Assembly (NCBI RefSeq): GCF_037392515.1
Contig: NC_090285.1
Coordinates: 70,653,515 to 70,717,514, forward strand
Source: Haliotis asinina
Lineage: Eukaryota
Reading direction: 5' to 3'
DNA length: 64,000 nt
The notes under the pieces are model-generated. The model was given only the letters and a program-made list of their open reading frames with translations, was not told where the DNA came from and ran no database searches. The position numbers and the translations under genes were made by a program. Shown in pieces: positions 11,432 to 27,062 of this stretch. Each line of letters starts with the position of its first letter. Position 1 is the stretch's first letter.

Positions 11432-11788
11432 AGAGTATAGAGTATCAGTGCAATGGAGTATAGAGTATCCGTGCAATGGAGTAATGAGTATCAGTGCAAT
11501 GGAGTATGGAGTAATGAGTATCAGTGCAATGGAGTATAGAGTATCAGTGCAATGGAGTATGGAGTATAGAGTACCAGTGTAATAAAGTATAGAGTATCAG
11601 TGCAATGGAGTATAGAGTATCAGTGCAATGGAGTATAGAGTATCAGTGCAATAGAGTATAGAGTATCAGTGCAATAAAGTATAGAGTATTAGTACAATGG
11701 AGTATAGAGTATCAGTGCAATAAAGTATAGAGTATTAGTGCAGTGGACTGAAGAGTATCAGCGCAATAAAGTATAGAGTATCAGTGTG
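11432..11788. repeat. Minisatellite, ~27-28 bp unit (agtatagagtatcagtgcaatggagtat), ~13 copies
   Basis: Directly visible tandem repetition. Confidence 0.85.
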
Positions 11789-12522: not shown

Positions 12523-12684
12523 CTACTGCAGCTCACCTTTACAAGTGTGTGTATAAATACAGTTATAACAACATGGGAGACTTTTTGTGGTATCTCTGTT
12601 ATACAAGGCCTTCTGTAGCTCACCTTTGTAACTGTAGGTATAGGTACAGTTATAACATCAGAAACTTTTTATGGTATCTGTGTT
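12523..12684. repeat. Host ~77-bp satellite, about two monomers, abutting the left end of the Polinton-like element
   Basis: Same monomer family (ctgcagtagctcaccttcacaactgtgtgtataggtacagttataacatgggagagtttgatggtatctgtgttacacaagg) as the array at 28307..28921 and the monomer at 26977..27062. Confidence 0.8.
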
Positions 12685-12988
12685 AGTAGTATAGGGAATG
12701 ATAGTTCTGGCTCACTTTCAAGAAATGTCTCTACAAAGCCTTATTTACTAAATAAGGCTTTGGTTGGGTCATTAGCTCTTGCTACTATTACCCCTACTAC
12801 AAAAAAGTTGGCGGTAATTACTGTGCCTTGGTAGGAGGTAACACTGTGCCGTACGGTACGATCAATAATTCTTCTCTTACAAATCCCCTACCCGGCCCAT
12901 CCCTCAAGTAGTATAAGTTAGGTTCGTCGGCTTTCATATCCACTTTATCTATGTTGTAAGTTTTGACTGACCATATAGGATCGGTGGC
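12685..12988. repeat. Left terminal inverted repeat of the Polinton-like element
   Basis: 100% identical to the reverse complement of 26673..26976. Confidence 0.9.
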
Positions 12989-13783
12989 TCGCTTACGGCT
13001 ATCGCCCTCGTGTTCCCCCGGCTGGTATAGATACCTCACTAGGGCCCTATCTGGTATTTGTTTCTCCTTCCCACGCAATGGAGCGGCCGACTCTGCAACT
13101 ATTGATTTTAGTTTGATAGCGTCTGCCGGTTTCTTACCGGTGAGACGGGTGACTTCATGGTTGATTGCCGACACCACCTTGGGTAACCTCGTGACCCATT
13201 CAGTCGATCGTTTTCCAGGGGTGGTCATCTCCCTAGCATACTGATAGCCGAACAAGCGCTCAGCCAAAGTCCTATTAAATCTCTCAACTATGGCTTGGCT
13301 GCGATGGGCTCCGGCCGTGCCACGCCTGACCTTTGTATCGTGTTTGGCTAGCAGTTGTGACACGGCACCCATGAACTCCCGTCCGGGGTCAACTTGCAGC
13401 TCTGTTGGCCACGTCAGTGGGCTGCGTTTGTATATGCGTTCAAATCCTCTGGCTACCTGGGCCGAATCTTTCGTGGTCAAGGGTTCGGCTTCCTTGTAAC
13501 GACTGGCTACATCCACTACGGTTAAGGCATACTTGTACCTCTTGTCGTGGGGTAGGAACAGTAGGTCTGCCTGGTGAATGCTATTAGGTATGTTAATACC
13601 GAACCTCCTAGGCACGTAGCGTGGTGCCGGTAAATAGATCTGCCACAGGGCTTGTTTTTTAAGCCACGCTTTGGCTTCCTCCGGGGGTACTCGCGCTAGT
13701 TTAGCTAGCTTATCTACTGCGCTAGCTCCTTTCCAGTACCCACGCGGGCTGTAGTAAATAGCCTCAAATTTTTTCATGTCCAT
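12818..13783 (-). CDS. Retroviral-type (rve, DDE) integrase, 321 aa. The C-terminal ~57 aa (SH3/chromo-like?) are encoded inside the TIR.
   Basis: Catalytic signature in the ORF: HQADLLFL (D), TVVDVASRY (D), and the canonical ERFNRTL motif (E) in AIVERFNRTLAERL. Confidence 0.9.
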   Translation of the reverse strand: MDMKKFEAIYYSPRGYWKGASAVDKLAKLARVPPEEAKAWLKKQALWQIYLPAPRYVPRRFGINIPNSIHQADLLFLPHDKRYKYALTVVDVASRYKEAEPLTTKDSAQVARGFERIYKRSPLTWPTELQVDPGREFMGAVSQLLAKHDTKVRRGTAGAHRSQAIVERFNRTLAERLFGYQYAREMTTPGKRSTEWVTRLPKVVSAINHEVTRLTGKKPADAIKLKSIVAESAAPLRGKEKQIPDRALVRYLYQPGEHEGDSRKRATDPIWSVKTYNIDKVDMKADEPNLYYLRDGPGRGFVREELLIVPYGTVLPPTKAQ

Positions 13784-16700
13784 ACGCGTATGTGTTTATA
13801 CCATCAATAGCTATCCAACGTTTCGTGTCCATAGGCGATAGGGACGTCTTGTTTATAGTCAGTCCGTATATCTTATGCCCATCACTTCTAAGTGTGTTCA
13901 TTTTATGTCTAAAGGTACGGGTCTTGAACAGGGCTTCCTTGAATCTGGCGTGTTTGATGTGTTGTTTCACCACATACTTAACCCCCTTAGCCTTCCGGAT
14001 CTCACTATTGTCGGCTTTCAGTATGGAGTACATCTTAGGTCTCAAACCTATGTACTCGGCTATGGGCGTGCCAGCACACTCGTCCTTCATCTTACCTAGG
14101 ACCTTTTTATTTACCGTACTGTGTAGGGCATGGGTCTTAGGGTAGTCGCTGGTGTCGTATAAATCGAGGTGTTTTTTCATGTCCTCGTACACGTCCTCGG
14201 TTCGAATCTCCATCAGCAGGGAATCCGTGTCAGTGTACAGCACTTCACACCTGTCACCGTACTGTTTCTTGAGCTCGTTGTAGTAAAAGTCGTACATCAG
14301 GTGTTTGGATAAATCGAGGATGCTCATCCCCACGTAAACAGGCCGGTTGAATTTTATGTGGCTTTTCTTCATGTGTAGGGCAACCAGGTTGTCTGTGAAT
14401 ATCTTACTACGGTTGAATGCCGGACTGGCTATCAATTTCCTGAGCTTGTCTTCCTCACTAGATCTAACCAGCTTCACGGTCACGCGTTTCCTCAGGTTCT
14501 CCATAGTCTTACCAAACACCGAGTTGTTCATGAGCTTGTAGAGATTTTTCTCAAAATCACTGGTGGCTTTTTTTCGTAGGTCTGTGTTCATTCTGATGTA
14601 GGGCTCCATCCATGGGCTCTGGTCGAACATGAGCACCCTGTGTATTTTGGTCAGCCTCATACCCAACGACAGGTACAGCTGTAGGTTGCGATAGTGAACG
14701 ATATACTTGGTCTTATTCATTAAGTTAGGCACGAGTTTTTCAACGTCTGTCACACGCCCACCTAACAAGTTATGTTGGTACTCAGACATCCAGTCTGTAT
14801 TAACCCTCATACGTTCGGGTGCAAGGGGATAGCTGTTGTGCGATGTGTGTAATTCCTTGGGATACTCTAAGTCAACTTCGAGGATATACCCTTTGTTCGA
14901 ATCTGGTGCAACCTCCATAACATCAACGTGGGGTACCCATTCGAATCCCCCTGTAGGTAGATACTGGCTCATGGCCCAGCCGTACAGGTTGTTTGCGTCG
15001 AGGTAGAGAATGTGATTGGTTGGTTTGTTAGGATCGTAACCTTTCACGTATTGATTATTTGCTTTAGCGTATCGTTTGGATGCCATGGAAATCCCACCTC
15101 GCAAGCCTTTCTCAATGAATAGGTGCATGTCGTAATCTGTGAGCAATTCCAAATTAACTCCGGTCTTTTTAAGCAAGGCGTCCCACGACAGACCTGGGCT
15201 GGTGTAATACCATGCGGGGTCGAGTTTATACTGCTTTAAACATGTCTGCCGAAACGTTTCAAACACGTCGGCTAACAGCAGTACATCTGTCCTCAAGTAC
15301 AGGTCGTGATAATCACCCAGGTTCTTACAACCCAGTTTATTCCATACGTTAGTCGCGTGCGAGTAATCATCTCGTGAGACGGACGCCTCATTCAGCTTGC
15401 TATAAAAGCAGTCAATAGGGGGTAGTCTGGTCTCGGTGAACTTGGCCCAACTATCCATGTACTCATAGGGGTACACACCCTTCCTCATAAGCAGGGGTCT
15501 AGTCTCGGCGTCTGTGTATCGATCGGTGATAGGGAAGGTATTGTTGGCCTTGACCAGACTGTCGAGTGACGACAGGAGGAACTGAAACGAGTCAATGAAC
15601 CTAAGTCCGTTTAAGCTGAAGGAGATGTATCTCTCCATGTTGTTGGGGATGCACGTTATATTACCATCGATTTTCGCGATGGCCTGCATGATCAAGTGTG
15701 AGTCGTACCCTCTCAAGTTGTGAAAGACAACGGGGATGTTTATTGTCTTAGGGTTGATTTTAAGCTTGAGGTTGCACGCGTTGTGAGCGGCGCCTCTATA
15801 CTTACCAGTTATGTGGCAGTGATCTCTCACCGAATCACCGTTAAGTGGTGAGTCGCACACGTGACAGTTAGTGCTACTAGCGTGAGCTAGCCTGTCGGCT
15901 CGGGTCATACGCATGGGAGCGATTCTATACAATGCATTCCTAATAATTTTTTCTTCCTCCTGCAAACACTTTAGAAACCTTTCAGCCGCGTCAGGGCCCC
16001 TATACACTACCGGAGCTTTCGTTTCCCCGTCACAACGGACGACAATGTATCCAAACGAACAGGCTTTATGCTCTTGTGTCTTGTGGGTGAAGCTACCACT
16101 GGGAGCCTCGCCGGCGGCAGCACTGGGGTGTGTGGGGGATTCCCCCACAACTAAGGCTTCGAAGTCGGCGTATATAATATAAGGTACAGACATTTGGTTC
16201 TTGTGGTTACTGAATTTTAGGATATTTTCACCTTCCTTAGGCATGTCGACTCGTATGGCCGTCTGCCCCACACCTTGGCAATCATCCCGGTGGGATTCTA
16301 ATAAATCAGCTCGACTGAAACCGTGTAGGCATCGTACACAAAAGTGTTTTTCCCCAACGTGTTTCGACTGGTCGTGCAACAACCGGCTGAGATGTTTTAT
16401 CCACGTGTAGTGATACTTTTCACCTCGCTGGATCATGAATATATTGATAACTTGGCGATCCTTCACCGGGCTGACCCTGTGTACTATTGTTGTGTTACCT
16501 TCGTGCCCAAAGACATTTATAGCCAGATTATTCTGTTTTTCTACTTTAGTGATCTGGGATATTGGGGTGGGTTCATCTATACCATCCCAATTAAGCCCAT
16601 CGTCTTGGGGATAGCTAGAAAGCCTATCTGAATTCTTGCCAGCTGGAAATAAGGCTGACCTGATAGCTAACCTCAGGCAATCGTTTCCTCTATTCTTAAC

Positions 16701-17504
16701 GTTTACTATGGCATGTTTGTTCCTATAGTAGGGAGGCAAGGCTAGGTATGACCCGCCTCTGAACGGCACGTAGTTAGCTATGTCTAGATAGACATTATCG
16801 ATTTTATCTACAGCCCACCCGGACCCCAAGTGTGTGTAGCGTTCTAGGTATTCTCGTATCTGCTGAAAACTGGTATCGATTGATGCGTCAATGGTCTCTG
16901 CATGTGTGACGACCTCTTGTTTACCTCGGAAGTAAGGCTGAACATACTCAGTGGTACTCCCAACCTGCTTATCGAGCGACATTTTCACTGTGATCTGAAA
17001 CTTGATACTTCCTAGGTTATTTAGTTCCTGGTTGATCTTATCAGCTATCAGAGGCTTGATATCTGTAATGTCTATGTTTCTATCAACGCGCATGCGCCAA
17101 CCTCTCAAATAATTGCCTACGGCGTGCTCAGTGCGCACGAACTGTAGGTCAATAGCTCTATTCTGTCGTAATAATTCTATAAGCTGTGGTTTTCTCATAC
17201 GGGAATACCCGCCTAAACCCAAATCGTGTGCCTCGACTTTCAGTTGTTTTACAGTGGGAGGTTTTGCTACGGGGGCATGTGATAACAATGCGGTTAACCC
17301 GGCTCTCCCCAGGTTTGAATAACCCGTGTATCCAAGCTGTTTTGCTTGAGCTTTTAATTGTTTTATTGTAGGAGGGGCTTCTAAACCTAGTAATCTCAAC
17401 AATGCTGACTTCCGCATTCTAGAATACCCGATGACACCTCTCTGTTTTGCGACCCGCTTGAGCTCGCTTACAGTAGACATCGTGTTTACACCTAAGAGAA
17501 CCAA
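13764..17504 (-). CDS. Protein-primed family-B DNA polymerase (pPolB), 1246 aa. It carries three N-terminal HeH/Rho_N-like repeats and a Cys/His Zn-finger-like segment before the exonuclease domain.
   Basis: Exo I YIIYADFEALV. PolB motif A LYLDANNLYGWAMSQ (= Dx2SLYPS class). Motif C VLYTDTDSL (= YxDTDS). N-terminus ELKRVAKQRGVIGYSRMRKSALLRLL / QLKAQAKQLGYTGYSNLGRAGLTALL / QLKVEAHDLGLGGYSRMRKPQLIELL. The ORF overlaps the integrase ORF by 20 nt. Confidence 0.92.
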   Translation of the reverse strand: MVLLGVNTMSTVSELKRVAKQRGVIGYSRMRKSALLRLLGLEAPPTIKQLKAQAKQLGYTGYSNLGRAGLTALLSHAPVAKPPTVKQLKVEAHDLGLGGYSRMRKPQLIELLRQNRAIDLQFVRTEHAVGNYLRGWRMRVDRNIDITDIKPLIADKINQELNNLGSIKFQITVKMSLDKQVGSTTEYVQPYFRGKQEVVTHAETIDASIDTSFQQIREYLERYTHLGSGWAVDKIDNVYLDIANYVPFRGGSYLALPPYYRNKHAIVNVKNRGNDCLRLAIRSALFPAGKNSDRLSSYPQDDGLNWDGIDEPTPISQITKVEKQNNLAINVFGHEGNTTIVHRVSPVKDRQVINIFMIQRGEKYHYTWIKHLSRLLHDQSKHVGEKHFCVRCLHGFSRADLLESHRDDCQGVGQTAIRVDMPKEGENILKFSNHKNQMSVPYIIYADFEALVVGESPTHPSAAAGEAPSGSFTHKTQEHKACSFGYIVVRCDGETKAPVVYRGPDAAERFLKCLQEEEKIIRNALYRIAPMRMTRADRLAHASSTNCHVCDSPLNGDSVRDHCHITGKYRGAAHNACNLKLKINPKTINIPVVFHNLRGYDSHLIMQAIAKIDGNITCIPNNMERYISFSLNGLRFIDSFQFLLSSLDSLVKANNTFPITDRYTDAETRPLLMRKGVYPYEYMDSWAKFTETRLPPIDCFYSKLNEASVSRDDYSHATNVWNKLGCKNLGDYHDLYLRTDVLLLADVFETFRQTCLKQYKLDPAWYYTSPGLSWDALLKKTGVNLELLTDYDMHLFIEKGLRGGISMASKRYAKANNQYVKGYDPNKPTNHILYLDANNLYGWAMSQYLPTGGFEWVPHVDVMEVAPDSNKGYILEVDLEYPKELHTSHNSYPLAPERMRVNTDWMSEYQHNLLGGRVTDVEKLVPNLMNKTKYIVHYRNLQLYLSLGMRLTKIHRVLMFDQSPWMEPYIRMNTDLRKKATSDFEKNLYKLMNNSVFGKTMENLRKRVTVKLVRSSEEDKLRKLIASPAFNRSKIFTDNLVALHMKKSHIKFNRPVYVGMSILDLSKHLMYDFYYNELKKQYGDRCEVLYTDTDSLLMEIRTEDVYEDMKKHLDLYDTSDYPKTHALHSTVNKKVLGKMKDECAGTPIAEYIGLRPKMYSILKADNSEIRKAKGVKYVVKQHIKHARFKEALFKTRTFRHKMNTLRSDGHKIYGLTINKTSLSPMDTKRWIAIDGINTYAYGHEKI

Positions 17505-17538
17505 TGTCTAATTGGTTCACAGTAAGGGGAGGTAACCC

Positions 17539-17799
17539 TTAAGTGGCTATCTTGAGCAGTCGCCTACGTTCTTTTATGTAGCCTTTTTTATTCTCGTAGA
17601 TGAGTTGATGTCTGACTACGTTCGCTCCGTGAGCTTTACATAGACAGTAGTGTCCTTTAACCCCGATACCACACACAGAACACGTGTAGTTAGGACTTCC
17701 CATATGGAAACAACAGAACCCCTGATTCCTGCATTTCCTACCACAGGCCTCGGTCTTCCCCATAAGTATGTATTCGCATCGGTATGGAGCGGGTCTCAT
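17539..17799 (-). CDS. Small Cys-rich (probable zinc-binding) protein, 86 aa
   Basis: ORF has many paired Cys/His: CGRKC...CCFH...CSVC...HYCLCKAH. Same strand as the neighbouring genes. Confidence 0.4.
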   Translation of the reverse strand: MRPAPYRCEYILMGKTEACGRKCRNQGFCCFHMGSPNYTCSVCGIGVKGHYCLCKAHGANVVRHQLIYENKKGYIKERRRLLKIAT

Positions 17800-17818
17800 G
17801 TTTACTTATATAGGTATT

Positions 17819-18244
17819 TTAATTTAATTGCTTCGCAACCAACGCAGTAGCTGCTATACCCAACACTATGAAGCCCAGTTCACGATTCATTTGTCCCTTG
17901 GATGGTGTGTAGTACTGAGCGAGTGTGGGTTTATTGAGCGGTTCCAATTGTTTACCAGTTAGTAGATAGTATTCTTTCATTGCTTCATCGACATCGTTGA
18001 ATGTTTGAACGGCATGGTTTTCACGCTGGAGTTGTTCGTTAATAAAATCGATCCTCTGGAGGCGTTTTTTAGCGTACTCGGCCTGTGCTCTTTGTAATTT
18101 CTCAGTAGCGAGATCGTGTCGCTTCCTTTCTTCCTGTATTTCAGCCGCGTGATCATCTCGTAGTTTCGAGAAGAGGAAATTACTCCCGGAAAATGCCAGG
18201 GCATTCACTAACGCCCCACCGACCATCATAGCTATCGTGGCCAT
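17819..18244 (-). CDS. Hypothetical membrane protein, 141 aa. N-terminal TM (MATIAMMVGGALVNALAFSG), central coiled coil, C-terminal TM.
   Basis: ORF in the same transcriptional orientation as the rest of the left-arm gene block. The hydrophobic segments are readable in the translation. Confidence 0.4.
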   Translation of the reverse strand: MATIAMMVGGALVNALAFSGSNFLFSKLRDDHAAEIQEERKRHDLATEKLQRAQAEYAKKRLQRIDFINEQLQRENHAVQTFNDVDEAMKEYYLLTGKQLEPLNKPTLAQYYTPSKGQMNRELGFIVLGIAATALVAKQLN

Positions 18245-18252
18245 CCCTATAT

Positions 18253-18480
18253 TTATTTCATTATATTATCAGGTATTATTCCTTGTTTTACTAGGATGTC
18301 TTTTGTGGCCATCGCCATACCAAGGTTCATTATGAGCATACCCATATCCTGCAGGTTGAAATCTAGCTTGATAGTTGGTTGTTTAAGCACCATTTTAGTC
18401 AACCGAGCGTACCCTACTGCTAGACTGGCTACCACTGTGGCGTGGTATACGTCGTTGACGAACGTTTTCCCCTCAGACAT
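18253..18480 (-). CDS. Hypothetical small protein, 75 aa
   Basis: ORF in the gene block, with an AT-rich region upstream of its start (18481..18510). Confidence 0.3.
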   Translation of the reverse strand: MSEGKTFVNDVYHATVVASLAVGYARLTKMVLKQPTIKLDFNLQDMGMLIMNLGMAMATKDILVKQGIIPDNIMK

Positions 18481-18506
18481 TATGTATATGATATAAAATA
18501 TTAAAA

Positions 18507-18818
18507 TTATAACATGATATGCGGGTCGACAGTGGGGCCTGCCGGCGGCGTGTGGGGTACCCCCACACCCCCAGGGTTTCCCTCAGTTCCCTCACGTGTA
18601 TATAACCATGTTATAACCACGGCAGCAGTTACACCTACAGCCAACAACAGTCGGGTTGGGTTGGCCGCTTTATGTTGGTTACACCACCGTTTTTTACCGG
18701 CAGCTACTCTCTTAGGATTCTTCTGCCTGGTTACTGTTGGGGGTACCCCCACTGGTGTCACTGGTTCCTGTGAAGGGGTCTCCTCCACTGTTTCCACTGG
18801 TTCCTGTGCAGCATCCAT
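18507..18818 (-). CDS. Hypothetical Pro-rich membrane protein, 103 aa. It overlaps the 3' end of the next ORF in another frame.
   Basis: ORF with a TM segment (LLLAVGVTAAVVITWLY) and a Pro/Gly/Thr linker (GVGVPHTPPAGPTV). Confidence 0.3.
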   Translation of the reverse strand: MDAAQEPVETVEETPSQEPVTPVGVPPTVTRQKNPKRVAAGKKRWCNQHKAANPTRLLLAVGVTAAVVITWLYTREGTEGNPGGVGVPHTPPAGPTVDPHIML

Positions 18819-19401
18819 CTATACTATTATTATTATTCTTTCTCTCAAATTGGCAATGTTTTGCTGTGATAATCGCCGCCGTCACTGGAGCCAACAACAT
18901 ACCATATTTGTGGTACAGCCCGCAGCTGATAGAGCTCACGGCGTGTTCGATAAAAGGGTCTTTCTCGAGGTCCTCCCACAGGTAAAGTCGGCGCTCTGGT
19001 GGAATGGGAAGGAAGTGTGATACAATACCGGTGTATATCTGGGTCATAGCCGATCCTATTGTCTTTGTCATTTCTGCTCCGAGCCGGGACTCGTATCTAG
19101 CGTATAGCTTATCGATTTCTTCGGCTGACATTTTGTGAATTTTATCCGGAGTGTAGTCTCCAAAATAATGTTTGGCTTTGCCGCCAACAGCCAACGCCAC
19201 CAGTTTCTCTCGCTTGGGGGAATCCCCCACAGTGGGGCCTGCCGGCGGCGTTGGGGAGACCCCCAACTGTTCGAGTAATTCCTCACACTCCATCTTATAA
19301 TATAACAAGTAAGATTTAGTTTTAACTATATAATACCCGATGCAGACAAAACACAGAGAAATGAAGGTTAAGTTGCACACGACAAATACTTCAAATATCA
19401 T
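18712..19401 (-). CDS. Hypothetical protein, 229 aa (an internal start at MECEELLEQ is possible). Contains the TPPAGPTV linker and a G/S/T-rich C-terminus.
   Basis: ORF in the gene block. No motif I recognise. Confidence 0.35.
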   Translation of the reverse strand: MIFEVFVVCNLTFISLCFVCIGYYIVKTKSYLLYYKMECEELLEQLGVSPTPPAGPTVGDSPKREKLVALAVGGKAKHYFGDYTPDKIHKMSAEEIDKLYARYESRLGAEMTKTIGSAMTQIYTGIVSHFLPIPPERRLYLWEDLEKDPFIEHAVSSISCGLYHKYGMLLAPVTAAIITAKHCQFERKNNNNSIDGCCTGTSGNSGGDPFTGTSDTSGGTPNSNQAEES

Positions 19402-19455
19402 AGCTATGCTTAGCTTTGCTTAGCTATGCTTAGCTTTGCTTAGCTTTGCTTAGCA
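19401..19455. repeat. 10-bp tandem repeat (TTAGCTTTGC / TTAGCTATGC, ~5.5 copies) in the intergenic region between the ATPase gene's 3' end and the next gene's start
   Basis: Directly visible: tagctatgcttagctttgcttagctatgcttagctttgcttagctttgcttagcat. Confidence 0.85.
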
Positions 19456-20055
19456 TACTATATATGCTACTGGTTGGTCGGTCTTTAGAACGAGCTTAGC
19501 GTGTTTAGTTTCAGCGAGCTGTTTCTTCACCCGTTCCCGTTCTAATTTACTCATCACATTGTTCTCTCTCAAACACTCCTCGAACGAATCCCTGTCCTTG
19601 CAGTGAAATAAGGCCACCCATCGCGTCTGCTCCCTGAGGTCTTTCAACACCGAGTTGAACTTCTGCGTTAGCACCCAGACGCTGTGATTTGCATGCCGGC
19701 CGGAGAAGGCCAGGTACGATAGCATGTCTCTCTTTTTTGTTATCTCGCGATTAGCGCTGCAGTCGTCCAGTATGAACAGCGTCGGTTCCCCTTTAAATTT
19801 CTCGTGAAGAGCTTTCAACCAGTCCTGCAGGCGTGTTCCAGGGTCGATTTTGTGTACGTCCGGGTCCGTCATCACCCAAGGTCGCGCGTACGTTTTATTC
19901 ATGCTCAGAGTAGGGCACATGATAACGATGTTATCGAACACATCCTTGTAGTAACCCTCCAACATATCCAACACGAAAACGGTCTTCCCACAGCCAGTCT
20001 GCCCGCACACTATGGCGCAGTGTGGGTCAGTGGGTAACCCCAGGGGGTACCCCCA
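19450..20055 (-). CDS. A32/FtsK-HerA-like DNA-packaging ATPase. It has no in-frame ATG upstream of the Walker A motif. The frame is open back to a TGA at 20056-20058, which is also the stop codon of the upstream ORF.
   Basis: Walker A GQTGCGKT. Walker B LFILDDCS. GRHANHSVWVLTQ resembles the poxvirus A32 GRHLNTSIILLCQ block. My own translation of the upstream region: TGA WGYPLGLPTDPHCAIVCGQTGCGKT. Confidence 0.8.
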   Translation of the reverse strand, partial: WGYPLGLPTDPHCAIVCGQTGCGKTVFVLDMLEGYYKDVFDNIVIMCPTLSMNKTYARPWVMTDPDVHKIDPGTRLQDWLKALHEKFKGEPTLFILDDCSANREITKKRDMLSYLAFSGRHANHSVWVLTQKFNSVLKDLREQTRWVALFHCKDRDSFEECLRENNVMSKLERERVKKQLAETKHAKLVLKTDQPVAYIVC

Positions 20056-21312
20056 TCAGTAGATGGCTTGCACGAATCTCCCATTGTCTATATTAAGTTG
20101 CGCGTCCATAATAACGTACAGATATAATTTCAACTTACCAGCGGTTTGAGCCTTCTTAGTAATCTGGATGGTTATCCCTTCGCTGCCGTTATCTATACGG
20201 CGCCCGCTACCGTGCAGTTTATCATCATCCGTGGATCGCATGTCCAACCATAGGGCGTACTTGGTGGTCAGGTATTCACCGATCTGCACGGAGCCGAGAT
20301 CCAGGTCCTTTGTTATGTAGTCCCCCACTGGTAGCTTTTTTATCTCATCCCACTGCTGGTGTGGTCTCATACCATGACTGAACAGCTGGTTGGGCACGCC
20401 CTCGATGGTAACTTCCACCTTTTCAATCTCGGGGTTGAAAAACTTCTCGCTGTCCCTCCGGAATGGATCGTAATCCTCCACGGGGACGACCAGGATACCT
20501 TTCATCGATCGCGCCGGCACGTTCAGGTTGATATTCCACACAGTGTCGCTCTTATCTCGCACGACTGATCTATGCCTCAGTACGCGATCGTACAGGATAG
20601 CCATCTTCCCAGAGTACTGGTTTCGAACCTGCCTGGCCAGCTCCGGGCTAGTGACCATGTCGAACTCCAGAGAGATGTTGTCTATGGCATAACTGGCCTC
20701 ATCACCGTTTGGTGTACGCACTACTTTGCTATAGTCGTTAAACGTGAGCTCGTATTCGAGCCTATCACCCAGCGCGGCCTGGTAAAACGGCGCGTGTCCC
20801 GTGAGCAACTCGAAGTCGAGCGGCACGCAGAATCGATTTCCGTATGCTCGAGCGATGGCCTTTTCACCGTCCGATAGCTTGTCTTGCTGGTCTGTCGTGA
20901 AGACGTATCCTATGCGCGCCCGGGTTGATTTGCTGATGCCCTGGTACACATCATTGACTCGTTCTCTCTCGCTTTTCCAGAGATCCTTGTAGCAGTGAAA
21001 CACGTCGCTGTCGTCGATGCTCAGCACCTCGTTACCGCTGATCTTGACGGTCGTTTTCTTGATGATAGCTCGACCCACGTTCCGCACTAGCTCGCGTTTG
21101 TCGTTGTCGGAGATCAACGTGATATTGAACGCCAGTCGAACAGTGCCTGGTACAATGAGGTCATTCTCACCAAGGTTTGGAAATCTAACCAGCAGAGTTT
21201 GATTCTGGTCTATCTTGCTGGGATTGTTGGTGATGGTCACCGACTGTCGCACGGCTCTGGCCCCTAATGGCTCTCTCAATCTTCTGAAAGGATCTAATTT
21301 TCTGCCGTACAT
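20056..21312 (-). CDS. Candidate jelly-roll capsid protein (putative major capsid protein), ~419 aa from MYGRKLDP
   Basis: Size and position (adjacent to the packaging ATPase) fit Polinton major capsid proteins. The N-terminal region is beta-strand-like (TLLVRFPNLGENDLIVPGTVRLAFNITLIS). I see no sequence motif that confirms it. Confidence 0.35.
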   Translation of the reverse strand: MYGRKLDPFRRLREPLGARAVRQSVTITNNPSKIDQNQTLLVRFPNLGENDLIVPGTVRLAFNITLISDNDKRELVRNVGRAIIKKTTVKISGNEVLSIDDSDVFHCYKDLWKSERERVNDVYQGISKSTRARIGYVFTTDQQDKLSDGEKAIARAYGNRFCVPLDFELLTGHAPFYQAALGDRLEYELTFNDYSKVVRTPNGDEASYAIDNISLEFDMVTSPELARQVRNQYSGKMAILYDRVLRHRSVVRDKSDTVWNINLNVPARSMKGILVVPVEDYDPFRRDSEKFFNPEIEKVEVTIEGVPNQLFSHGMRPHQQWDEIKKLPVGDYITKDLDLGSVQIGEYLTTKYALWLDMRSTDDDKLHGSGRRIDNGSEGITIQITKKAQTAGKLKLYLYVIMDAQLNIDNGRFVQAIY

Positions 21313-21344
21313 TGTTATATAAAAGAAATATATTTTTAATACTA
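21313..21344. promoter_or_regulatory. 32-bp AT-rich divergent intergenic region with a TATA-like element (ttatataaaag) between the capsid candidate (-) and the 396-aa gene (+)
   Basis: Start codons at 21310-12 (complement) and 21345. The sequence between them is tgttatataaaagaaatatatttttaatacta. Confidence 0.4.
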
Positions 21345-22502
21345 ATGGATGAAGACATAGATATGACGGAGATGCCGGGCGATAGTGCCCAGGCATTCGA
21401 TGAGCAGGAGACCTCATTTACTAGTTCACCATTGAACCAAGAACTCTTGGAAACAACGGTAAATGATTATTACGAAAGTTTAAGAAGAGATAAAAACTAC
21501 GTTGAACCACAGGGTCGATACCATAAGAATTTTTTTATTGATACAAAGGGTGTTCTACGCCTTAAGTCTGACCCAGGGGTTGACCTCTTTAACAAGAGCA
21601 ATAAAAAACCACTGGCCTTGTCAACTCTAGCCAGCCGCCATGGTGTCGAATTTATCCGTAAAAATCTAAACATGAATGATTACGGTGGTGCAATACCTAA
21701 GGCCGTTAAAGAAGATCTGCAAGCTACCAGATCCCACCTCACCACTAGAGATGAAATGACACCACAGCGTGCTACAGAAGCCTCGGACAGCATAGAAAAA
21801 CTGTTGAGCACCTACTGGGACAAACCGTTACCGGGGTTTGACTTTCCGGTAAGGGAACTGCGCGGCTTAGACGAAGCCGTGAAACGCGTGCGTGGAGAAC
21901 TCGTGAACAACATGGGGAAACTGAACGAAATCGACGAGCACATCGCTAGGGAAAAAACCAAACTCAACGAAACTGAAAACGATGATATGAAGCGTCGTAT
22001 CAATGAACGAATACGTGATTTAGAAGACGAGAGACGTACACGATTGGAAGCCGCTTCCTCGAATCGTGAACAGCTTCGATCCCAGATCAGTCGTATTCGG
22101 GAAACAATCGATAGAATACTGAATGAGGATACAACTTTAGCCAACAGGATTCGGATATTGTTCCGGGAGCAAGGGATCACCATCGCCAGTATTCTGACTG
22201 CATTGGGTTTCATCATATCAACCCTGGTGGTGTCACTGGTGGGAGGAACCCCCACACCTGCCGGCGGGGGAACTCCCACAGGCGGCGGGGTTAAAGACTG
22301 GATAAAAAAACTCGGGGAAGGCCTAGCTAAACTGGCTGGTAAAGCCGCCGAAGCCCTTCCCGGCATCCTGGGTAGCATCGTCTCGTGGTTGTTGGGCGCT
22401 CTGTCTAAAACTGCCATGTGGCTCAGTCAAAACCTGTGGGCAGCCATAGTCGCCGTGGTGGGTCTGGTGTACGTAGCGGCTAAGAAATCTTTAACCAAAT
22501 AA
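21345..22502 (+). CDS. Hypothetical 385-aa protein. Acidic N-terminus, long coiled coil, then a multi-pass hydrophobic C-terminus interrupted by a GGTPTPAGGGTPTGGG linker.
   Basis: Long ORF that starts at the first ATG after the AT-rich region. Heptad-like charged region (KLNEIDEHIAREKTKLNETENDDMKRRINERIRDLEDERRTRLEAASSNREQLRSQISRIRETIDRIL). Hydrophobic stretches (IASILTALGFIISTLVVSLVGG ... ILGSIVSWLLGAL ... LWAAIVAVVGLVYVAA). Confidence 0.45.
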   Translation: MDEDIDMTEMPGDSAQAFDEQETSFTSSPLNQELLETTVNDYYESLRRDKNYVEPQGRYHKNFFIDTKGVLRLKSDPGVDLFNKSNKKPLALSTLASRHGVEFIRKNLNMNDYGGAIPKAVKEDLQATRSHLTTRDEMTPQRATEASDSIEKLLSTYWDKPLPGFDFPVRELRGLDEAVKRVRGELVNNMGKLNEIDEHIAREKTKLNETENDDMKRRINERIRDLEDERRTRLEAASSNREQLRSQISRIRETIDRILNEDTTLANRIRILFREQGITIASILTALGFIISTLVVSLVGGTPTPAGGGTPTGGGVKDWIKKLGEGLAKLAGKAAEALPGILGSIVSWLLGALSKTAMWLSQNLWAAIVAVVGLVYVAAKKSLTK

Positions 22503-23691
22503 GTCCCAAAGTTACCCCACCAACCACCAGGGCTGTTTTATTATCGATGTGATTGGAGGCCTGAATATGGGGGTGTGTGGGGGGCACATGAACTTTAGGC
22601 TCCGGAGGTGGCGCCACTATACCCTTTTCACGTGGTGGGATGTGTGGGATATAGGGGGTGTTAATATCGGGGTTGATACCCAACTTTTGGTCCGCCGTGG
22701 CTATGACTATTTTGTTGTTATAACCCACCACTTTTTTTATTCTCAGTTGCATATCACTCGGAGCCATGTACAACCCCACGCCGAATACGTAATTGACTTT
22801 CGATCTGGCGTATTCTAACACGTTTTGGTAGCGTTCGATGGCCCGCGGGAGATCAACTGGAGAATTAATAGCATCCTCAACGTTGGCAACGAACTGTTTC
22901 TGAGCGTCGTAAGCAGTTCCCTTACCGATGATGTTGGAACGCGTTTGCGACTGCGCACCCAACAGCGCCCACACGTACGTTCGAATCGAGTCGTTCAAGC
23001 GTATTGTACCAGCACGAGTGAATCCTTTCGACGTGTCCAGCATGAACATTTTCCACCCGTCTGCGGTTGACTGCTCCACTTTCTGGACTGTGAAAGCAAC
23101 ACCACCTTTAAAGTTCATACGATCATCCCTCCATTCATTACTCGACAAAGCAAAGTCCTGGCGTAGTATATCTCGTTTCAGTAAATCATCACTGACTTCT
23201 TTCACTGATCGCGCGCCATCATAAGGAATACCCAACCCGTGGTTCGGCCCCGGCAAACGCCAATCCGTCTTCGGGTTTATTTCGAATTCATTGCAAATAC
23301 GTTCGTAGGCCCGTCTATCGTACGGGTTGTTTGTTGCGCCCCACGCTTTGTCCTGTGGGAGGGGGGCGCTGATCTCTTTAAGGATACGTCTGACCTGGTA
23401 GTACACGTGGAACTTGAACACAGACTGACTCAGCGGTCCACGCCGAGTGTCGGCCAATGTCACACCACACCCCGTTGTAGCGCACCACATGGCAAAGTTG
23501 AATTGATTCTGCCAGAACTGCATAGGGTTGTTGAACCAAGCGTGGACTGCCTTGATGTTAGTCACCGAAAGCTTATACTTATCGAACACATCCAAAAGCT
23601 GGGCATTGAAATACAACTCAGGAGCAACCACGATCTTCATGGGGGAGAAATCTACGTCCAGTTTAGGGTAAAACACACCAGGGGAATACAT
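22480..23691 (-). CDS. Hypothetical ~403-aa protein with a Pro-rich linker and a C-terminal TM anchor (TALVVGGVTLGLIWL). Alternative capsid candidate.
   Basis: Uninterrupted 1.25-kb ORF, whereas the opposite strand is fragmented. Convergent with the 385-aa gene (23-nt overlap). Confidence 0.4.
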   Translation of the reverse strand: MYSPGVFYPKLDVDFSPMKIVVAPELYFNAQLLDVFDKYKLSVTNIKAVHAWFNNPMQFWQNQFNFAMWCATTGCGVTLADTRRGPLSQSVFKFHVYYQVRRILKEISAPLPQDKAWGATNNPYDRRAYERICNEFEINPKTDWRLPGPNHGLGIPYDGARSVKEVSDDLLKRDILRQDFALSSNEWRDDRMNFKGGVAFTVQKVEQSTADGWKMFMLDTSKGFTRAGTIRLNDSIRTYVWALLGAQSQTRSNIIGKGTAYDAQKQFVANVEDAINSPVDLPRAIERYQNVLEYARSKVNYVFGVGLYMAPSDMQLRIKKVVGYNNKIVIATADQKLGINPDINTPYIPHIPPREKGIVAPPPEPKVHVPPTHPHIQASNHIDNKTALVVGGVTLGLIWLKIS

Positions 23692-23725
23692 TTTAAAACT
23701 ATTATATAATAAATATATATGTAAT
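23692..23725. promoter_or_regulatory. AT-rich divergent intergenic region with TATA-like elements between the 403-aa gene (-) and the 217-aa gene (+)
   Basis: ttttaaaactattatataataaatatatatgtaat lies between the two start codons. Confidence 0.4.
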
Positions 23726-24379
23726 ATGTACATAACACTTCCAGGAATAACGAGCGGTGAGGCCGTTCAGCTGACGCACGCGATCGATAACACGTCAGGT
23801 CAACTCGAAGTCGCACTCTGCGATATCACCTACCTACCGCAATGGACTAACATCAATATCAGCAACAATAAGCTGTTCGTCAGTGGAACTCGCAGCCAGA
23901 TAACTGACGGCTACTACAGTGTGTGCTCTCTAAACGACGAGGTCTTCAAACCCCTGGGAGCCGAACTCAAGATGAACGACTCAAACGGTACAGTGGTGTT
24001 AATCAACAACGGAAGAACCTCATTGAGGCTCGGCCGACCATTAGCGAGGATACTCGGTATGTCTCCTGACGAGATAAAACCAACAACAACCATCACAGGC
24101 ACGAAGTTACCCGACCTAGTACCGTACCGAGAGCTGTACATTCATCTCGGTCAGGTGAGCACAACGTATAACATTCAAGGAGGTCACCCTTCCACTATAC
24201 TGAGAGCAGTGCCGGTGAAAACTGAGAAATTCAACGACGGTAGAACCGAGTCGTTTTCACCACGGCAGTATAAGAGATTAACCCAGGGCAACATACCTGA
24301 GTTGACAATATCGGTGTTAGATATAAATCATAATCCTGTAAATATAGGATACCTCAGCTTAACGCTTCATGTAAAATGA
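23726..24379 (+). CDS. Hypothetical beta-rich 217-aa protein (possible minor capsid/penton-like protein)
   Basis: ORF with alternating hydrophobic beta-strand-like patterning. First of four tandem + strand ORFs with short (-4 to +10 nt) junctions. Confidence 0.35.
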   Translation: MYITLPGITSGEAVQLTHAIDNTSGQLEVALCDITYLPQWTNINISNNKLFVSGTRSQITDGYYSVCSLNDEVFKPLGAELKMNDSNGTVVLINNGRTSLRLGRPLARILGMSPDEIKPTTTITGTKLPDLVPYRELYIHLGQVSTTYNIQGGHPSTILRAVPVKTEKFNDGRTESFSPRQYKRLTQGNIPELTISVLDINHNPVNIGYLSLTLHVK

Positions 24380-25287
24380 CCAGCGCACAAGGGCCCGGAG
24401 TGAAAAAATGCGTCAATATCGGGATCTCCGACCTTGGAGACACGCGCGGTTTCGACGCTCCCGGAGTAGATGGTAAATCGTACGCCTTGCAACTGAAAAA
24501 CAACATTTACAAACGCGTTGAAATCCCCTCCGGTGGAACCCTAAGTGATATAGTAGATACCACAAGAGCAACAGTCAACACTAAGTACACCCTTGTCAAC
24601 ACCGGTGATAATAATTGGGTAATATACCCATCGTTCGGAGGTAAACTGTTCGACTTAGACGATGTTGAGAGCACTACCGTCGCCCGAAACAAGCCATATA
24701 TGCTCGTCTTCACCGAAGATGACAAGTGGGTGTTGTTACCCGATAACAACTGGTTTATCAATATTAGACTCGTCTCCCCCTACGTGTTCACTGATAACAA
24801 AGACAACCACCTAAACAAAGTCGTGAACAATGGAACCCTGCTCGTGGCTTACGTCCCAACTCAGAGACGTAGCATAGTCGTCAGCCCAGTCAACACTATA
24901 GCAGCCCACATGCTATCGAGTAAACCAGCCATACAAAACGTGAAATTGCAGTTGGTGTCTGAATTCGAAGGTGTGGTCACTATACTAGAGGATCTACCGG
25001 CAAACTCAACACTGATCATCAAAGTCTACCTAGGGGAACCATCGGGGAATGATGTCGAGATCGTGAAGGGGATCAAACTCGGGTGGGTGAAACGACACCA
25101 GTATCAAGTTTGCAACGTTTACGTGCGGGTGGGTGTCGACTCCAAGACCAGTCTGCAGGGGGTCAACGTGATCGTGGAAAACAAGATATCACTAATCAAT
25201 ATCTTCCTGCCTGACAACATACACTTCATGGGTATGAAGTTAACCCCTGAATTATTATCAGAAAACCAGTTGGAAATTATATCGTAA
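24376..25287 (+). CDS. Hypothetical 303-aa protein. Paralog of the next ORF; they share an N-terminal DLGDTxGFDxPG motif.
   Basis: MTS...DLGDTRGFDAPGVDGKSYALQLKNNIYKRVEI versus MTS...DLGDTEGFDQPGEEDELYILHFKDNVYRRVSL. C-terminal ...NQLEIIS versus ...RQLEIFS. Confidence 0.4.
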   Translation: MTSAQGPGVKKCVNIGISDLGDTRGFDAPGVDGKSYALQLKNNIYKRVEIPSGGTLSDIVDTTRATVNTKYTLVNTGDNNWVIYPSFGGKLFDLDDVESTTVARNKPYMLVFTEDDKWVLLPDNNWFINIRLVSPYVFTDNKDNHLNKVVNNGTLLVAYVPTQRRSIVVSPVNTIAAHMLSSKPAIQNVKLQLVSEFEGVVTILEDLPANSTLIIKVYLGEPSGNDVEIVKGIKLGWVKRHQYQVCNVYVRVGVDSKTSLQGVNVIVENKISLINIFLPDNIHFMGMKLTPELLSENQLEIIS

Positions 25288-25297
25288 TAGTATAATA

Positions 25298-26002
25298 ATG
25301 ACCAGTCATCATCCCAACACTACGCTTAACGACCTAGGAGATACGGAGGGATTCGATCAGCCTGGTGAGGAAGATGAATTATACATCCTGCACTTCAAAG
25401 ACAACGTGTACAGACGGGTGTCGTTATCAGATTTAAAAGAACCCAAATGGCTGATCAACTTAACAATCGCCTCACCTTATATCACAACAAAAGAGGGGTG
25501 GAAGTTTATCTCTAAGATTAGGAATAACGGTATCTGGCCCGGGGATTTCATTACGGGGAATGAAGCAACAGCCTCGGTATATTTTTATGAAGGAAAAATT
25601 GGATTAATTTCTGGAATAGAAAGTAAATTAACATTTAGCAGTATGTATTTACACGAAAGGCAGCTTGAGATATTCTCCCCCTACACAATCATCATAGAAG
25701 TCATCTTTACGTATTTTGACCAGGAAAACTCCTCGAAAGGACGTCAATTTTTACCCGGGGTGGTATTACACTGGTTTACCGAACACTTAGATCAATATTG
25801 CCGTATTGTTATACAACGGGATACCCCCACGGGTTCTATAAAACGTTTAATAAGCCTCCCTGGGGTTTTTATTACAACAGAAAAGTCTATTAGCCTCTCA
25901 CCAATTATCATTAGTTATGATCTATTCCTTATAGGCTTCAAATACATTGATAGACTATTAACTGAAACCCAATTAAAATATTTTTCAAAATATATATTAT
26001 AG
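25298..26002 (+). CDS. Hypothetical 234-aa protein, paralog of the 24376..25287 ORF
   Basis: See the paralog comparison above. Confidence 0.4.
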   Translation: MTSHHPNTTLNDLGDTEGFDQPGEEDELYILHFKDNVYRRVSLSDLKEPKWLINLTIASPYITTKEGWKFISKIRNNGIWPGDFITGNEATASVYFYEGKIGLISGIESKLTFSSMYLHERQLEIFSPYTIIIEVIFTYFDQENSSKGRQFLPGVVLHWFTEHLDQYCRIVIQRDTPTGSIKRLISLPGVFITTEKSISLSPIIISYDLFLIGFKYIDRLLTETQLKYFSKYIL

Positions 26003-26003
26003 G

Positions 26004-26621
26004 ATGGGTCTGTACCCAGTCGTAGAGGAAGTAGCGAAGACGCTGGAAACCGTAGATGGGTTCCGCTTGAGGCAGTTATGTGATGTGAAACGTCAACTAG
26101 AACAAGACCGTGACACGCGGAAAGCACTATGTAAAAAGTACAATAGAGCTTTCAATATCGTGGACGGGGTTGACACTACCCTTATGGCAACCAGCATGGG
26201 ACTAGGGGCGGCAGGTGTTGGATTGTTAGCTACCATCGTGGCTGCACCTATAGTGCTAGGTATTGAAATAACGGCTGGGGTGACAGGGTTGGTAGGGTTG
26301 GCGCTTAAGTTAGTATCACGCAGACTTAATCGTAAGGCATTGAAACACGACGAGATCAGGGTTCTGGCCGAAGCAAAGCTGAACACAGTGAGTGAGCGAA
26401 TTTCCACGGCACTCTCTGACAGTAAGATCTCAGAAGAGGAGTTTCGTTCAATCCTATCTGAACTCAAAAAATATAACGGAATGAAACAAGATATTCGGTC
26501 CAAGTCTCGTAAGTCTGCTATCAGCGAGGACGAGAAAAAAAAGTACATAGAACAGGGGATACAAAAAGCCCAGCAAGCCTTTATTATGAACACCAAAGAG
26601 ATCGTAGGCGGTTCACGTTAA
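26004..26621 (+). CDS. Hypothetical 205-aa membrane protein with a coiled coil. Ends ...EIVGGSR.
   Basis: ORF. Hydrophobic core (LMATSMGLGAAGVGLLATIVAAPIVLGIEITAGVTGLVGLAL) followed by a charged helical region. Confidence 0.4.
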   Translation: MGLYPVVEEVAKTLETVDGFRLRQLCDVKRQLEQDRDTRKALCKKYNRAFNIVDGVDTTLMATSMGLGAAGVGLLATIVAAPIVLGIEITAGVTGLVGLALKLVSRRLNRKALKHDEIRVLAEAKLNTVSERISTALSDSKISEEEFRSILSELKKYNGMKQDIRSKSRKSAISEDEKKKYIEQGIQKAQQAFIMNTKEIVGGSR

Positions 26622-26672
26622 ACTGTTTCATCGATATAAACATGACACAGGCACAGACGTTAAGTAGTAGGG

Positions 26673-26976
26673 GCCACCGATCCTATATGGTCAGTCAAAA
26701 CTTACAACATAGATAAAGTGGATATGAAAGCCGACGAACCTAACTTATACTACTTGAGGGATGGGCCGGGTAGGGGATTTGTAAGAGAAGAATTATTGAT
26801 CGTACCGTACGGCACAGTGTTACCTCCTACCAAGGCACAGTAATTACCGCCAACTTTTTTGTAGTAGGGGTAATAGTAGCAAGAGCTAATGACCCAACCA
26901 AAGCCTTATTTAGTAAATAAGGCTTTGTAGAGACATTTCTTGAAAGTGAGCCAGAACTATCATTCCCTATACTACT
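26673..26976. repeat. Right TIR of the Polinton-like element. It carries an orphan copy (no start codon) of the last 57 integrase codons plus the stop.
   Basis: Reverse-complement identity with 12685..12988. My + strand translation of 26673.. gives ATDPIWSVKTYNIDKVDMKADEPNLYYLRDGPGRGFVREELLIVPYGTVLPPTKAQ*. Confidence 0.9.
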
Positions 26977-27062
26977 GTGTTCCACAAGGACTACTGTAGC
27001 TCACCTTCATAATTATGTGTATAGGTACAGTTATAACATGGGAGACTTTTGATGGTGTTTTT
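26977..27062. repeat. Host ~77-bp satellite monomer immediately right of the element. It completes the monomer interrupted at 12684.
   Basis: gtgttccacaaggactactgtagctcaccttcataattatgtgtataggtacagttataacatgggagacttttgatggtg matches the satellite consensus. Confidence 0.8.

Follow-up and report, generated by a model that had tools for sequence, protein, structure and literature searches.

Polintons (Mavericks) are assigned a central role in the emergence of eukaryotic DNA viruses, and we know of no Polinton virion that has been seen to date. They are bounded by terminal inverted repeats (TIRs) of 100-1500 bp, have a total size of 13-25 kb and are flanked by target site duplications (TSDs) of 5-8 bp, typically 6 bp (10.1101/2023.08.22.554363). 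A protease of the adenain/Ulp1 type is typical, not obligatory, for these elements and was identifiable in only 74% of the RepBase Polintons (PMC4028283). In the same survey, Polinton-N1_NV, Polinton-N1A_NV and Polinton-N1B_NV from Nematostella (14.4-15.0 kb) were scored positive for the major capsid protein (MCP), the penton and the ATPase and negative for the protease, Polinton-3_NV (16.6 kb) was also scored protease-negative (PMC4028283, Table S1), and the capsid of PgVV, a Polinton-like virus (PLV), was grouped with the Nematostella Polinton capsids (PMC4028283). Here we describe an element of 14,292 bp at positions 12685-26976 of a 64,000-nucleotide stretch of Haliotis asinina DNA (assembly GCF_037392515.1, contig NC_090285.1, positions 70,653,515 to 70,717,514), which is referred to as the window. 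The element contains a complete Polinton-type set of replication and capsid genes and is very probably a well-preserved new polintovirus of the protease-less sub-lineage of Polinton-N1/N1A/N1B_NV and Polinton-3_NV, with a PLV/giant-virus-like capsid and a recent integration into an 83-bp satellite. It is not a new kind of system, and its unexplained parts are the protein p404 and the p303/p234 family.

An earlier note on this DNA, made by a model from the sequence alone, had proposed to search for a double-jelly-roll (DJR) capsid protein and for a penton, and both are present. The DJR MCP is encoded by an open reading frame (ORF) that the note had left unrecognised. Sequence searches of the PDB returned no match for this protein, and its identity was resolved by structure. 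In BFVD, the best structural matches are compact MCPs of the giant virus type (E=4.8e-16), while the entry 'Adintovirus sp.' is found at rank 28 (E=2e-11), behind giant-virus MCPs. A sub-threshold match to Pfam Capsid_N is seen in 47 of 49 family members, and one homologue from Elysia is named 'Major capsid protein' in UniRef. Homologues are numerous (n=1,637; the 120 matches listed are 60-66% identical), and the patterns used for IMG/VR viral contigs retrieved no MCP relative there. Comparison with the RepBase reference capsid sequences of Additional file 5 of PMC4028283 revealed 34% identity over 416 aa to the MCP of Polinton-N1A_NV (blastp E=1.7e-84; family profile 314.7 bits) and 32% over 423 aa to that of Polinton-3_NV (E=1.8e-78; 283.5 bits). 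Both blastp and the profile thus assign the protein to the Polinton-3_NV/N1_NV type of MCP, and no similarity was detected to the MCPs of Polinton-1_DR, Polinton-4_NV or other Polintons in the reference set. For p217, a PDB sequence search gave nothing and single-sequence blastp reached E=4.7e-7 against PX_Polinton-1_SP. A profile of the p217 family matches all ten reference PX pentons at 50.5-18.3 bits (E-values from 2e-16 to 1.4e-6, computed against a 14-sequence set) and no MCP. Because every PX reference is matched, p217 is assigned on profile similarity as the PX-type penton found in Polintons, with a predicted jelly-roll fold.

No peptidase family was matched by any of the 15 genes of the element in Pfam, PHROGs or NCBIfam, and no peptidase was present in the Pfam hits of the related loci L001-L003 or in the unassigned ORFs of relatives; the helical protein p404 shows no papain-like match either. 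The absence of an adenain/Ulp1-like protease, which the earlier note had pointed out, is therefore confirmed by these searches, and the protease-negative scores in PMC4028283 make it a known trait of this branch. The element and the Nematostella Polintons N1/N1A/N1B_NV and 3_NV are alike in MCP type, PX penton, ATPase, missing protease and length (14.3 kb versus 14.4-16.6 kb, all within the 14-17 kb of the sub-lineage). They differ in that only about one-third of the MCP residues are identical, which indicates another branch of the clade, in a comparison that covers capsid proteins and tabulated gene content. In addition, the 'N' in the RepBase names suggests non-autonomous elements, whereas the window copy has full PolB and integrase genes.

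The capsid also bears on the idea of a truly non-canonical Polinton-like element, in which the right half would encode an accessory or entry system, either specific to the lineage or undescribed. The earlier note had called the gene set unusual for Polintons and had described the block 21345..26621 as about half of the coding capacity without a match to any known family. The proteins p404, p385cc, p205, p303 and p234 indeed lack a family match in Pfam, PHROGs, NCBIfam and the PDB, p404 has no fold relative in the PDB, and the p303 family is small. However, the block includes the penton and is syntenic with MCP and ATPase in all relatives, the capsid ties the element to the protease-negative Polinton-N1A_NV and 3_NV, and comparable chimeras are known as meldviruses (10.1101/2024.03.25.586562). 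We therefore regard a non-canonical element as very unlikely. The proposal of a virion module in this block stands, while that of an undescribed accessory system does not fit the penton and the syntenic core genes that the block contains.

The boundaries of the element agree with the earlier note, which had described a 14.3-kb Polinton/Maverick-type virus-transposon with identical 304-bp TIRs. The two arms are 100% complementary and form the sole long inverted repeat within 11000-29000, and their length excludes a chance origin. The termini read AGTAG...CTACT and thus have the AG...CT ends which, according to a rule reportedly formulated by Kapitonov and Jurka in 2006 (5'-AG...CT-3'), characterize Polintons. 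Seven uninterrupted copies of the 83-bp repeat in the window read GGTATCTGTGTTACACAAGG and provide paralogous empty sites; the intact units have the sequence CTGTGTTACACAAGG and contain a single GTGTT, while the insertion junctions read ...GGTATCTGTGTT-element-GTGTTCCACAAGG. This comparison shows that the insertion duplicated exactly GTGTT, a 5-bp TSD within the range known for Polintons, as are the element size and the TIR length. That the element was inserted by an integrase is evident from its DDE integrase gene, from the perfect TIRs that end in AG...CT and from the duplication of 5 bp. Satellite sequence borders the element on both sides (12589-12684 and 26977-27062), and a 7-copy array of the same repeat is located 1.3 kb downstream (28307-28892). 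The element has a G+C content of ~47%, compared to ~38-40% in the flanks, is ~95% coding and represents the only ORF-dense stretch of the window.

The reconstructed empty site is also a strong argument against an assembly chimera, in which a free viral genome was misjoined to host DNA or the TIRs are artefacts. Flanks that are units of one 83-bp repeat and that rebuild an empty site with a single GTGTT would not be produced by an assembler, and L002, the closest full relative, also lies between non-viral sequences. The absence of the exact proteins from public collections and the possible existence of homopolymer-type indels in the assembly speak for a chimera, which we nevertheless consider extremely unlikely.

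The identical TIRs and the intact TSD show that the element inserted recently, in line with the very recent insertion suggested in the earlier note. Zero differences in 2 x 304 bp bound the age to less than about 3/(608 x mu), which corresponds to ~0.5-2.5 million years for mu between 1e-8 and 2e-9 per site per year; these rates are assumed and not those of the host, and gene conversion between the TIR arms would bias the estimate. L002 represents an earlier insertion of this lineage: it shares the terminal decamer AGTAGTATAG with the window element and with L012, and its TIRs have drifted to ~93% identity.

The core enzymes follow the Polinton scheme. The integrase matches Pfam rve (E=2e-10; 41.3 bits, cutoff 32.6), has kept all three DDE residues (D73, D132 and E167) and is 60-73% identical to its counterparts in related loci, as expected for the RVE DDE integrase of a Polinton. 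Its final ~57 codons are located within the left TIR (12818-12988), and a copy of the integrase C-terminus is therefore duplicated at 26673-26843. In PolB, Pfam recognises Rho_N (2.5e-13) and Endonuclease_7 (1.8e-5). The catalytic domain has no direct match in Pfam, searched with the full length and with the catalytic part, or in NCBIfam, and phmmer and family profile searches of the PDB and tblastn against phage records found only the Endonuclease VII insert, not the polymerase domain. However, PolB is 64% identical over 1,148 aa to its homologue P0242, which matches PF03175 (DNA_pol_B_2) at 9.2e-16 over profile positions 12-461 of 468. PF03175 is matched by 8 of the 20 aligned PolB family members (best 1.8e-18), and homologues from Elysia are named 'DNA-directed DNA polymerase' in UniRef. 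The Exo I-III and Pol A and C motifs and the link to PF03175 via P0242 thus identify the PolB of a Polinton. Together with the above-cutoff matches to rve and Pox_A32, they uphold the PolB, integrase and ATPase homology on which the earlier note had relied.

Polinton PolBs contain a terminal protein and a viral OTU domain (PMC11161782). The corresponding region of the window protein has the motif NRGNDCLRLAIRSAL (GNDC, Cys276) and a conserved His in 'HYTWIK'; the Cys and His columns of the alignment are at least 90% conserved, and the region has no Pfam OTU match. The extreme N-terminus (17140-17480, minus strand) consists of Rho_N/SAP-like helix repeats, two of them in stretches matched by Pfam and a third indicated by visual inspection. 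In most relatives, the alignment begins no earlier than residue ~120, which indicates that this extension is specific to the branch of the window element, L002 and P0241. An insert that resembles Endonuclease VII (HNH-type; 15765-15905, minus strand; E=1.8e-5) separates Exo I from Exo II and is also found in 19 of the 20 aligned relatives; Jeong et al. described an HNH insert as specific to pPolB2 of oomycetes and terrestrial nematodes, and a VSR insert in mollusc pPolB2.

The packaging ATPase is the sole exception among the 15 genes, the other 14 of which are full length compared with their homologues. It matches Pox_A32 (E=3e-8; 33.9 bits, cutoff 22.8) and contains both Walker A (GQTGCGKT) and Walker B (LFILDD), but its frame is broken by one nucleotide after the ATG. 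This ATG (20056-20054) overlaps the MCP stop codon (cTGATGg) and opens a frame of nine codons, ATG GGG GTA CCC CCT GGG GTT ACC CAC TGA, encoding MGVPPGVTH*, while the homology (GLPTDPHCAIVCGQTGCGKT...) proceeds in the +1 frame. The frameshift is located 4-7 codons past the ATG in a G5/C5/G4 homopolymer tract (~20036-20054). Removing one C from the C5 run restores an ATPase ORF of 201 aa, MGVPLGLPTDPHCAIVCGQTGCGKT..., with an N-terminus that agrees with those of all 20 relatives examined, whose own ORFs begin with ATG and are continuous. The listed ORF of 186 aa begins at an internal GTG, which is implausible as the natural start because Walker A would occupy residues 3-10; homologues are 25-40 residues longer. 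The frameshift is either a real insertion that inactivates the gene or an assembly error in the homopolymer. The statement of the earlier note that all long ORFs are uninterrupted thus applies to the other genes but not to the ATPase, and its suggestion of a possibly still active element is weakened.

If the mutation is real, the copy would be decaying, no longer infectious, and would persist as a transposon or fossil. The position of the frameshift within a gene that is continuous in 20 of 20 relatives supports decay, which would also fit the continuum of viral and transposon states (PMC4028283). On the other hand, it is the sole defect among 15 genes, the TIRs are still identical, and the tract is, as we infer, the context most prone to sequencing indels. 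We consider a decaying copy quite possible, at somewhat less than even odds. With a true frameshift, the copy would be unable to package DNA alone, but its PolB and integrase could still copy and move it, or sister copies could complement it.

Table 1. Features of the element in window coordinates, and genes of related loci in the coordinates of each locus. TM, transmembrane.
Feature	Position	Strand	Remarks
Left TSD copy	12680..12684		GTGTT, 5 bp
Left TIR	12685..12988		304 bp; begins 5'-AGTAGTATAG
RVE (retrovirus-type DDE) integrase	12818..13783	-	321 aa; Pfam rve
PolB	13764..17480	-	1246 aa; Rho_N/SAP-like repeats, OTU-like Cys motif, Endonuclease VII-like insert, Exo I-III and Pol A-C motifs
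p86cys	17539..17799	-	small Cys-rich zinc-finger-like protein; no family match in Pfam
p141	17819..18244	-	small; hydrophobic ends and central coiled coil; 51-58% identical in 13 loci
p75	18253..18480	-	small, hydrophobic; 41-55% identical in 13 loci
p103	18507..18818	-	small membrane protein; basic KNPKRVAAGKK motif, C-terminal DPHIML; TM 54-75
p229	18712..19293	-	conserved; probable start M37 at 19293, long ORF extends to 19401
A32/FtsK-type genome-packaging ATPase	19450..20056	-	Pox_A32; 1-nt frameshift just after ATG
DJR MCP	20056..21312	-	within 453-aa ORF, true start M36; adjoins ATPase
p385cc	21345..22502	+	N-terminal domain, ~100-aa coiled coil, Gly-rich multi-TM C-terminus; TM 276-304, 357-384
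p404	22480..23694	-	helical domain (1-290), Pro-rich disordered linker, C-terminal TM anchor
p217, PX-family penton	23726..24379	+	profile match to PX references
p303	24376..25287	+	occupant of variable slot beside penton
p234	25298..26002	+	tandem paralogue of p303
p205	26004..26621	+	coiled coil and long central hydrophobic (TM) segment 60-101; outermost gene
Right TIR	26673..26976		304 bp; terminates ...CTATACTACT-3'
Right TSD copy	26977..26981		GTGTT, 5 bp
Variable-slot genes of relatives	L005:941-2218, L018:1178-1705, L012:910-1788, L004:55-900, L006:677-1435	-	
MGLPEELYFALIEVG ORF of relatives	L011:7357-7764, L012:8978-9307, L018:9114-9407, L006:8755-9138, L020:3297-3704		

Beyond the Nematostella elements, several other groups share parts of this architecture. 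Canonical Group 1 Polintons and adintoviruses resemble the element in their pPolB (putative OTU-like domain and PF03175-type polymerase, 'Alpha' of Starrett et al.), RVE integrase, TIRs, TSD, AG...CT ends, A32/FtsK ATPase, DJR MCP, PX penton and size of 13-25 kb. In contrast to these, the window element has no adenain/Ulp1 protease and no MCP with detectable similarity to that of Polinton-1_DR or Polinton-4_NV; in structure, its MCP has its nearer counterparts among giant-virus MCPs, with the hexon entries of adintoviruses and adenoviruses more distant. Adintovirus hexons are defined by reciprocal BLASTp recognition with the Mayetiola (Alpha) or Terrapene (Beta) references. The Adenain that defines adintoviruses served as bait in the survey of Starrett et al. 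(PMC8502044), and such surveys would therefore miss a protease-less branch. PLVs such as PgVV are defined by a minimal morphogenetic module of MCP, minor capsid protein (mCP) and ATPase without a protease (PMC4642659), and the element has the same module of MCP, penton and ATPase. PLVs differ, however, in that they have a tyrosine recombinase or none and, with a single exception, no RVE integrase, are mostly of protist or metagenomic origin and often encode a helicase-primase, whereas the window element combines an apparently intact RVE integrase with pPolB in an animal genome.

Meldviruses combine an adintovirus-like PolB and integrase with megavirus-like virion proteins (10.1101/2024.03.25.586562), a mixed architecture that, by description, is also seen in the window; their example Meld23486 differs by a Beta-class PolB and poxvirus-like virion genes. 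In the animal-associated 'Group 2 Maverick-Polintons', pPolB is often replaced by SF1/SF3 helicase fusions (bioRxiv 10.64898/2026.06.19.733378). The related locus L006, with an SF1-helicase protein in the place of PolB, is similar by description, but the phospholipase domain said to be common in that group was not found in the window element. Mavirus-type virophages share pPolB, RVE integrase, DJR MCP, penton, ATPase and TIRs, while their combination of a virophage-type MCP with a maturation protease is not found here. Polinton- and PLV-type regions make up to 16% of some bivalve genomes (10.1101/2025.04.19.649669).

The comparison of 32 related loci, whose named hosts include sea slugs, sea anemones, a stony coral and a nemertean, revealed a constant gene order in every sufficiently long locus: p205-[variable gene]-p217-p404-p385cc-MCP-ATPase-p229-[p103-like]-p75-p141, followed by a rearrangeable PolB/integrase block. 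The sub-lineage is abundant in data from marine invertebrates. The order is seen in L002, L004, L005, L006, L011, L012 and L018, and identifies p385cc, p404, p205, p229, p141, p75 and p103 as core genes of the lineage rather than accessories of this copy. L002 is the closest full relative (integrase 73%, PolB 66% identity), and the closest copy is L032, a fragment with 88% nucleotide identity from run SRR5986943.

The conserved genes without family assignment include several predicted membrane proteins, and the coiled-coil and TM proteins that the earlier note had listed for its block were found there. p404 has ~1,455 homologues and no match in Pfam, PHROGs, NCBIfam or the PDB; its fold is confidently predicted and has no relative in the PDB. 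Residues C71, C76, H83, H96 and C134 and many Trp and Gln residues are (near-)invariant in the family, and the Cys/His set is suggestive of a metal site. p404 is a candidate membrane-anchored minor virion protein. p385cc, a candidate virion membrane protein, is 39-52% identical in 15 loci, is always divergent from the MCP gene and produced only coiled-coil noise in Pfam and NCBIfam. p205 is 42-61% identical in 7 loci and is always the outermost gene at that end. Homologues of p229 are found in 17 loci, with alignments that begin at residue 37, and no family match was obtained in Pfam, PHROGs or NCBIfam. Positional homologues of p103 in 8 loci have K(N/D)PKKVAAG, a TM segment and a C-terminus of the DPFxM(E/D) type; these common motifs rule out that p103 is an unconserved gene. 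By analogy, p404, p385cc, p205, p141, p103 and p75, possibly together with p229, are predicted to belong to a membrane inside the virion.

In the virion module (17800-26010, including 21313-21344 and 23695-23725), most genes are preceded by 40 nt with an A+T content of 75-93%, compared to an element mean of 53%. A TATA[AT]A or T[AT]TATA motif within 40 nt of the ATG is present in 9 of 15 genes, versus 4.6% of random 40-mers, and is lacking before PolB, ATPase and p303; in distant relatives, it is not clearly conserved. The motif is probably too near the start codon to serve as a Pol II TATA box and may represent a virus-type promoter.

These features raise the question of dependence on another virus. 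If the element were an integrated PLV of a virophage-like or defensive kind, it would remain silent up to a giant-virus infection, which would then provide the transcription machinery. Such a lifestyle would agree with a capsid that is structurally closest to giant-virus MCPs, with the upstream motif and with the missing protease, as in PLVs (PMC4642659); PLVs serve as defences in protists (PMC12220804). It is at odds with the element's own PolB and integrase, with the lack of clear conservation of the motif in distant relatives, and with the finding that neither a linked giant-virus sequence nor, by the patterns used, a relative in IMG/VR viral contigs was found. Furthermore, animal Polintons are generally considered autonomous. 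We judge a virophage-like element to be quite unlikely. A broader proposal would have the conserved unannotated half (p404, p385cc, p205, the small TM proteins and a cassette-like fibre slot) as a virion membrane and entry apparatus undescribed for any polintovirus, the A/T motif as a virus-type late promoter, and the elements as virophage-like dependants of a giant virus of marine invertebrates; taken as a whole, we consider it unlikely.

For a polintovirus of the protease-less sub-lineage, the following life cycle can be envisaged. The genome would be copied by protein-primed replication from the TIR ends, with the N-terminal part of PolB acting as terminal protein and being released by the OTU-like Cys protease domain. 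MCP trimers and p217 pentamers would form an icosahedral shell over a membrane which, as in other DJR viruses, would be internal and would hold the small TM proteins, and p303 and p234 would be located at the vertices for host recognition. The ATPase would package the linear genome, and a maturation protease would not be needed, as in PLVs.

Several points weigh against the placement and the life cycle given above. The polymerase assignment of PolB is transitive, as the window protein falls below the Pfam reporting threshold, and its OTU domain and terminal-protein function are predictions. The membrane inside the virion and the role of p303/p234 as fibres are predictions as well. The role of p404, which has no structural relative, is a guess. 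No similarity in either direction was found between p303 and the MSIFG-type fibre of relatives, and p303 as a diverged form of that fibre was rejected. No clear TSD was found for L002, no further copy or fragment of the element is present within the 64-kb window, and the exact element proteins are absent from a 15-billion-protein collection. Finally, with its broken ATPase frame, the copy falls short of being shown to be intact and active.

A copy with identical TIRs, an intact TSD and 14 of 15 genes in full length nevertheless offers a practical start for testing whether animal Polintons form particles; one base probably needs repair, or may prove to be a read error. The locus also provides a cleaner gene map of the protease-less, PLV-like branch of animal Polintons, with its capsid, penton, membrane-protein set and variable fibre slot, and p404, with >1,000 homologues and no known fold, is the most worthwhile unknown. 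Current ideas are unchanged by these results, as a catalogue of 2014 already included the lineage, and elements of this sort form large fractions of some invertebrate genomes.

The slot between p205 and the penton is hyper-variable. In the window, it contains p303 and p234, the paralogous pair noticed before (blastp E=5.6e-12; 49% identity over the N-terminal 37 aa), while L002 has one copy at this place. The p303 family comprises 72 clusters among 1.84 billion representatives, and its members p303 and p234 are, from their position, candidate vertex fibre or host-recognition (receptor-binding) proteins. In relatives, fibre-like proteins with 'SGDTMTGDLNM' repeats occur in the slot: the gene of L005 has an N-terminal match to Phage_T7_tail (E=1e-11) and a C1q-like tail, that of L018 a sub-threshold C1q match (6e-4), and those of L004, L006 and L012 related 'SGD(T/S)MTG' repeats. 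Judged from these domains, the slot in relatives is a probable vertex-fibre or receptor-binding slot. C1q families are large in bivalves, and the combination of a T7-tail-fibre motif with a C1q-like head in the fibre of an animal Polinton is notable in this regard.

Among the relatives, the PolB/integrase block is arranged in at least three ways. Integrase and PolB are in tandem in the window, convergent in L002 (integrase at L002:14761-15714), and in L011, L012 and L020 the block starts with the integrase, behind which PolB is inverted. Homologues of p86cys adjoin PolB in L002, L005, L006, L011, L012 and L020. In relatives with the alternative arrangement, a conserved ORF of ~100-135 aa (MGLPEELYFALIEVG...) lies upstream of the integrase, and it has no counterpart in the window element. 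The otherwise syntenic locus L006 encodes a 1,209-aa SF1-helicase protein (L006:9967-13596, minus strand; AAA_30 7e-11, AAA_19 2.6e-9) instead of PolB, which points to an exchange of replication modules within the lineage. L016 (L016:1-9110) is divergent and A+T-rich, with a PolB of 38% identity, and has an additional A32-like ATPase gene (360 aa, Pox_A32 2e-7) as well as a Cys-rich ORF of 125 aa between p141 and PolB.

The only sizeable non-coding gap of the element separates ATPase and p229 (19294-19449, 156 bp). It contains 5.4 copies of the 10-bp repeat TAGCTTTGCT (tandem repeat 19401-19454), and a gap of ~250 bp is present at the same position in L002; the gap may be a regulatory region.

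The window is otherwise repeat-rich, non-coding eukaryotic DNA in which no tRNA or Rfam match was found. A Tc1/mariner transposase remnant (33924-34511, minus strand; HTH_Tnp_Tc3_2 1.2e-15, weak DDE_3) represents a second, unrelated transposon family, and minisatellite arrays are located at 47634-49167 (32 bp x 48), 57648-58765 (80 bp x 13), 40786-41389 (36 bp x 16) and 44125-44685 (44-53 bp x 7-11).

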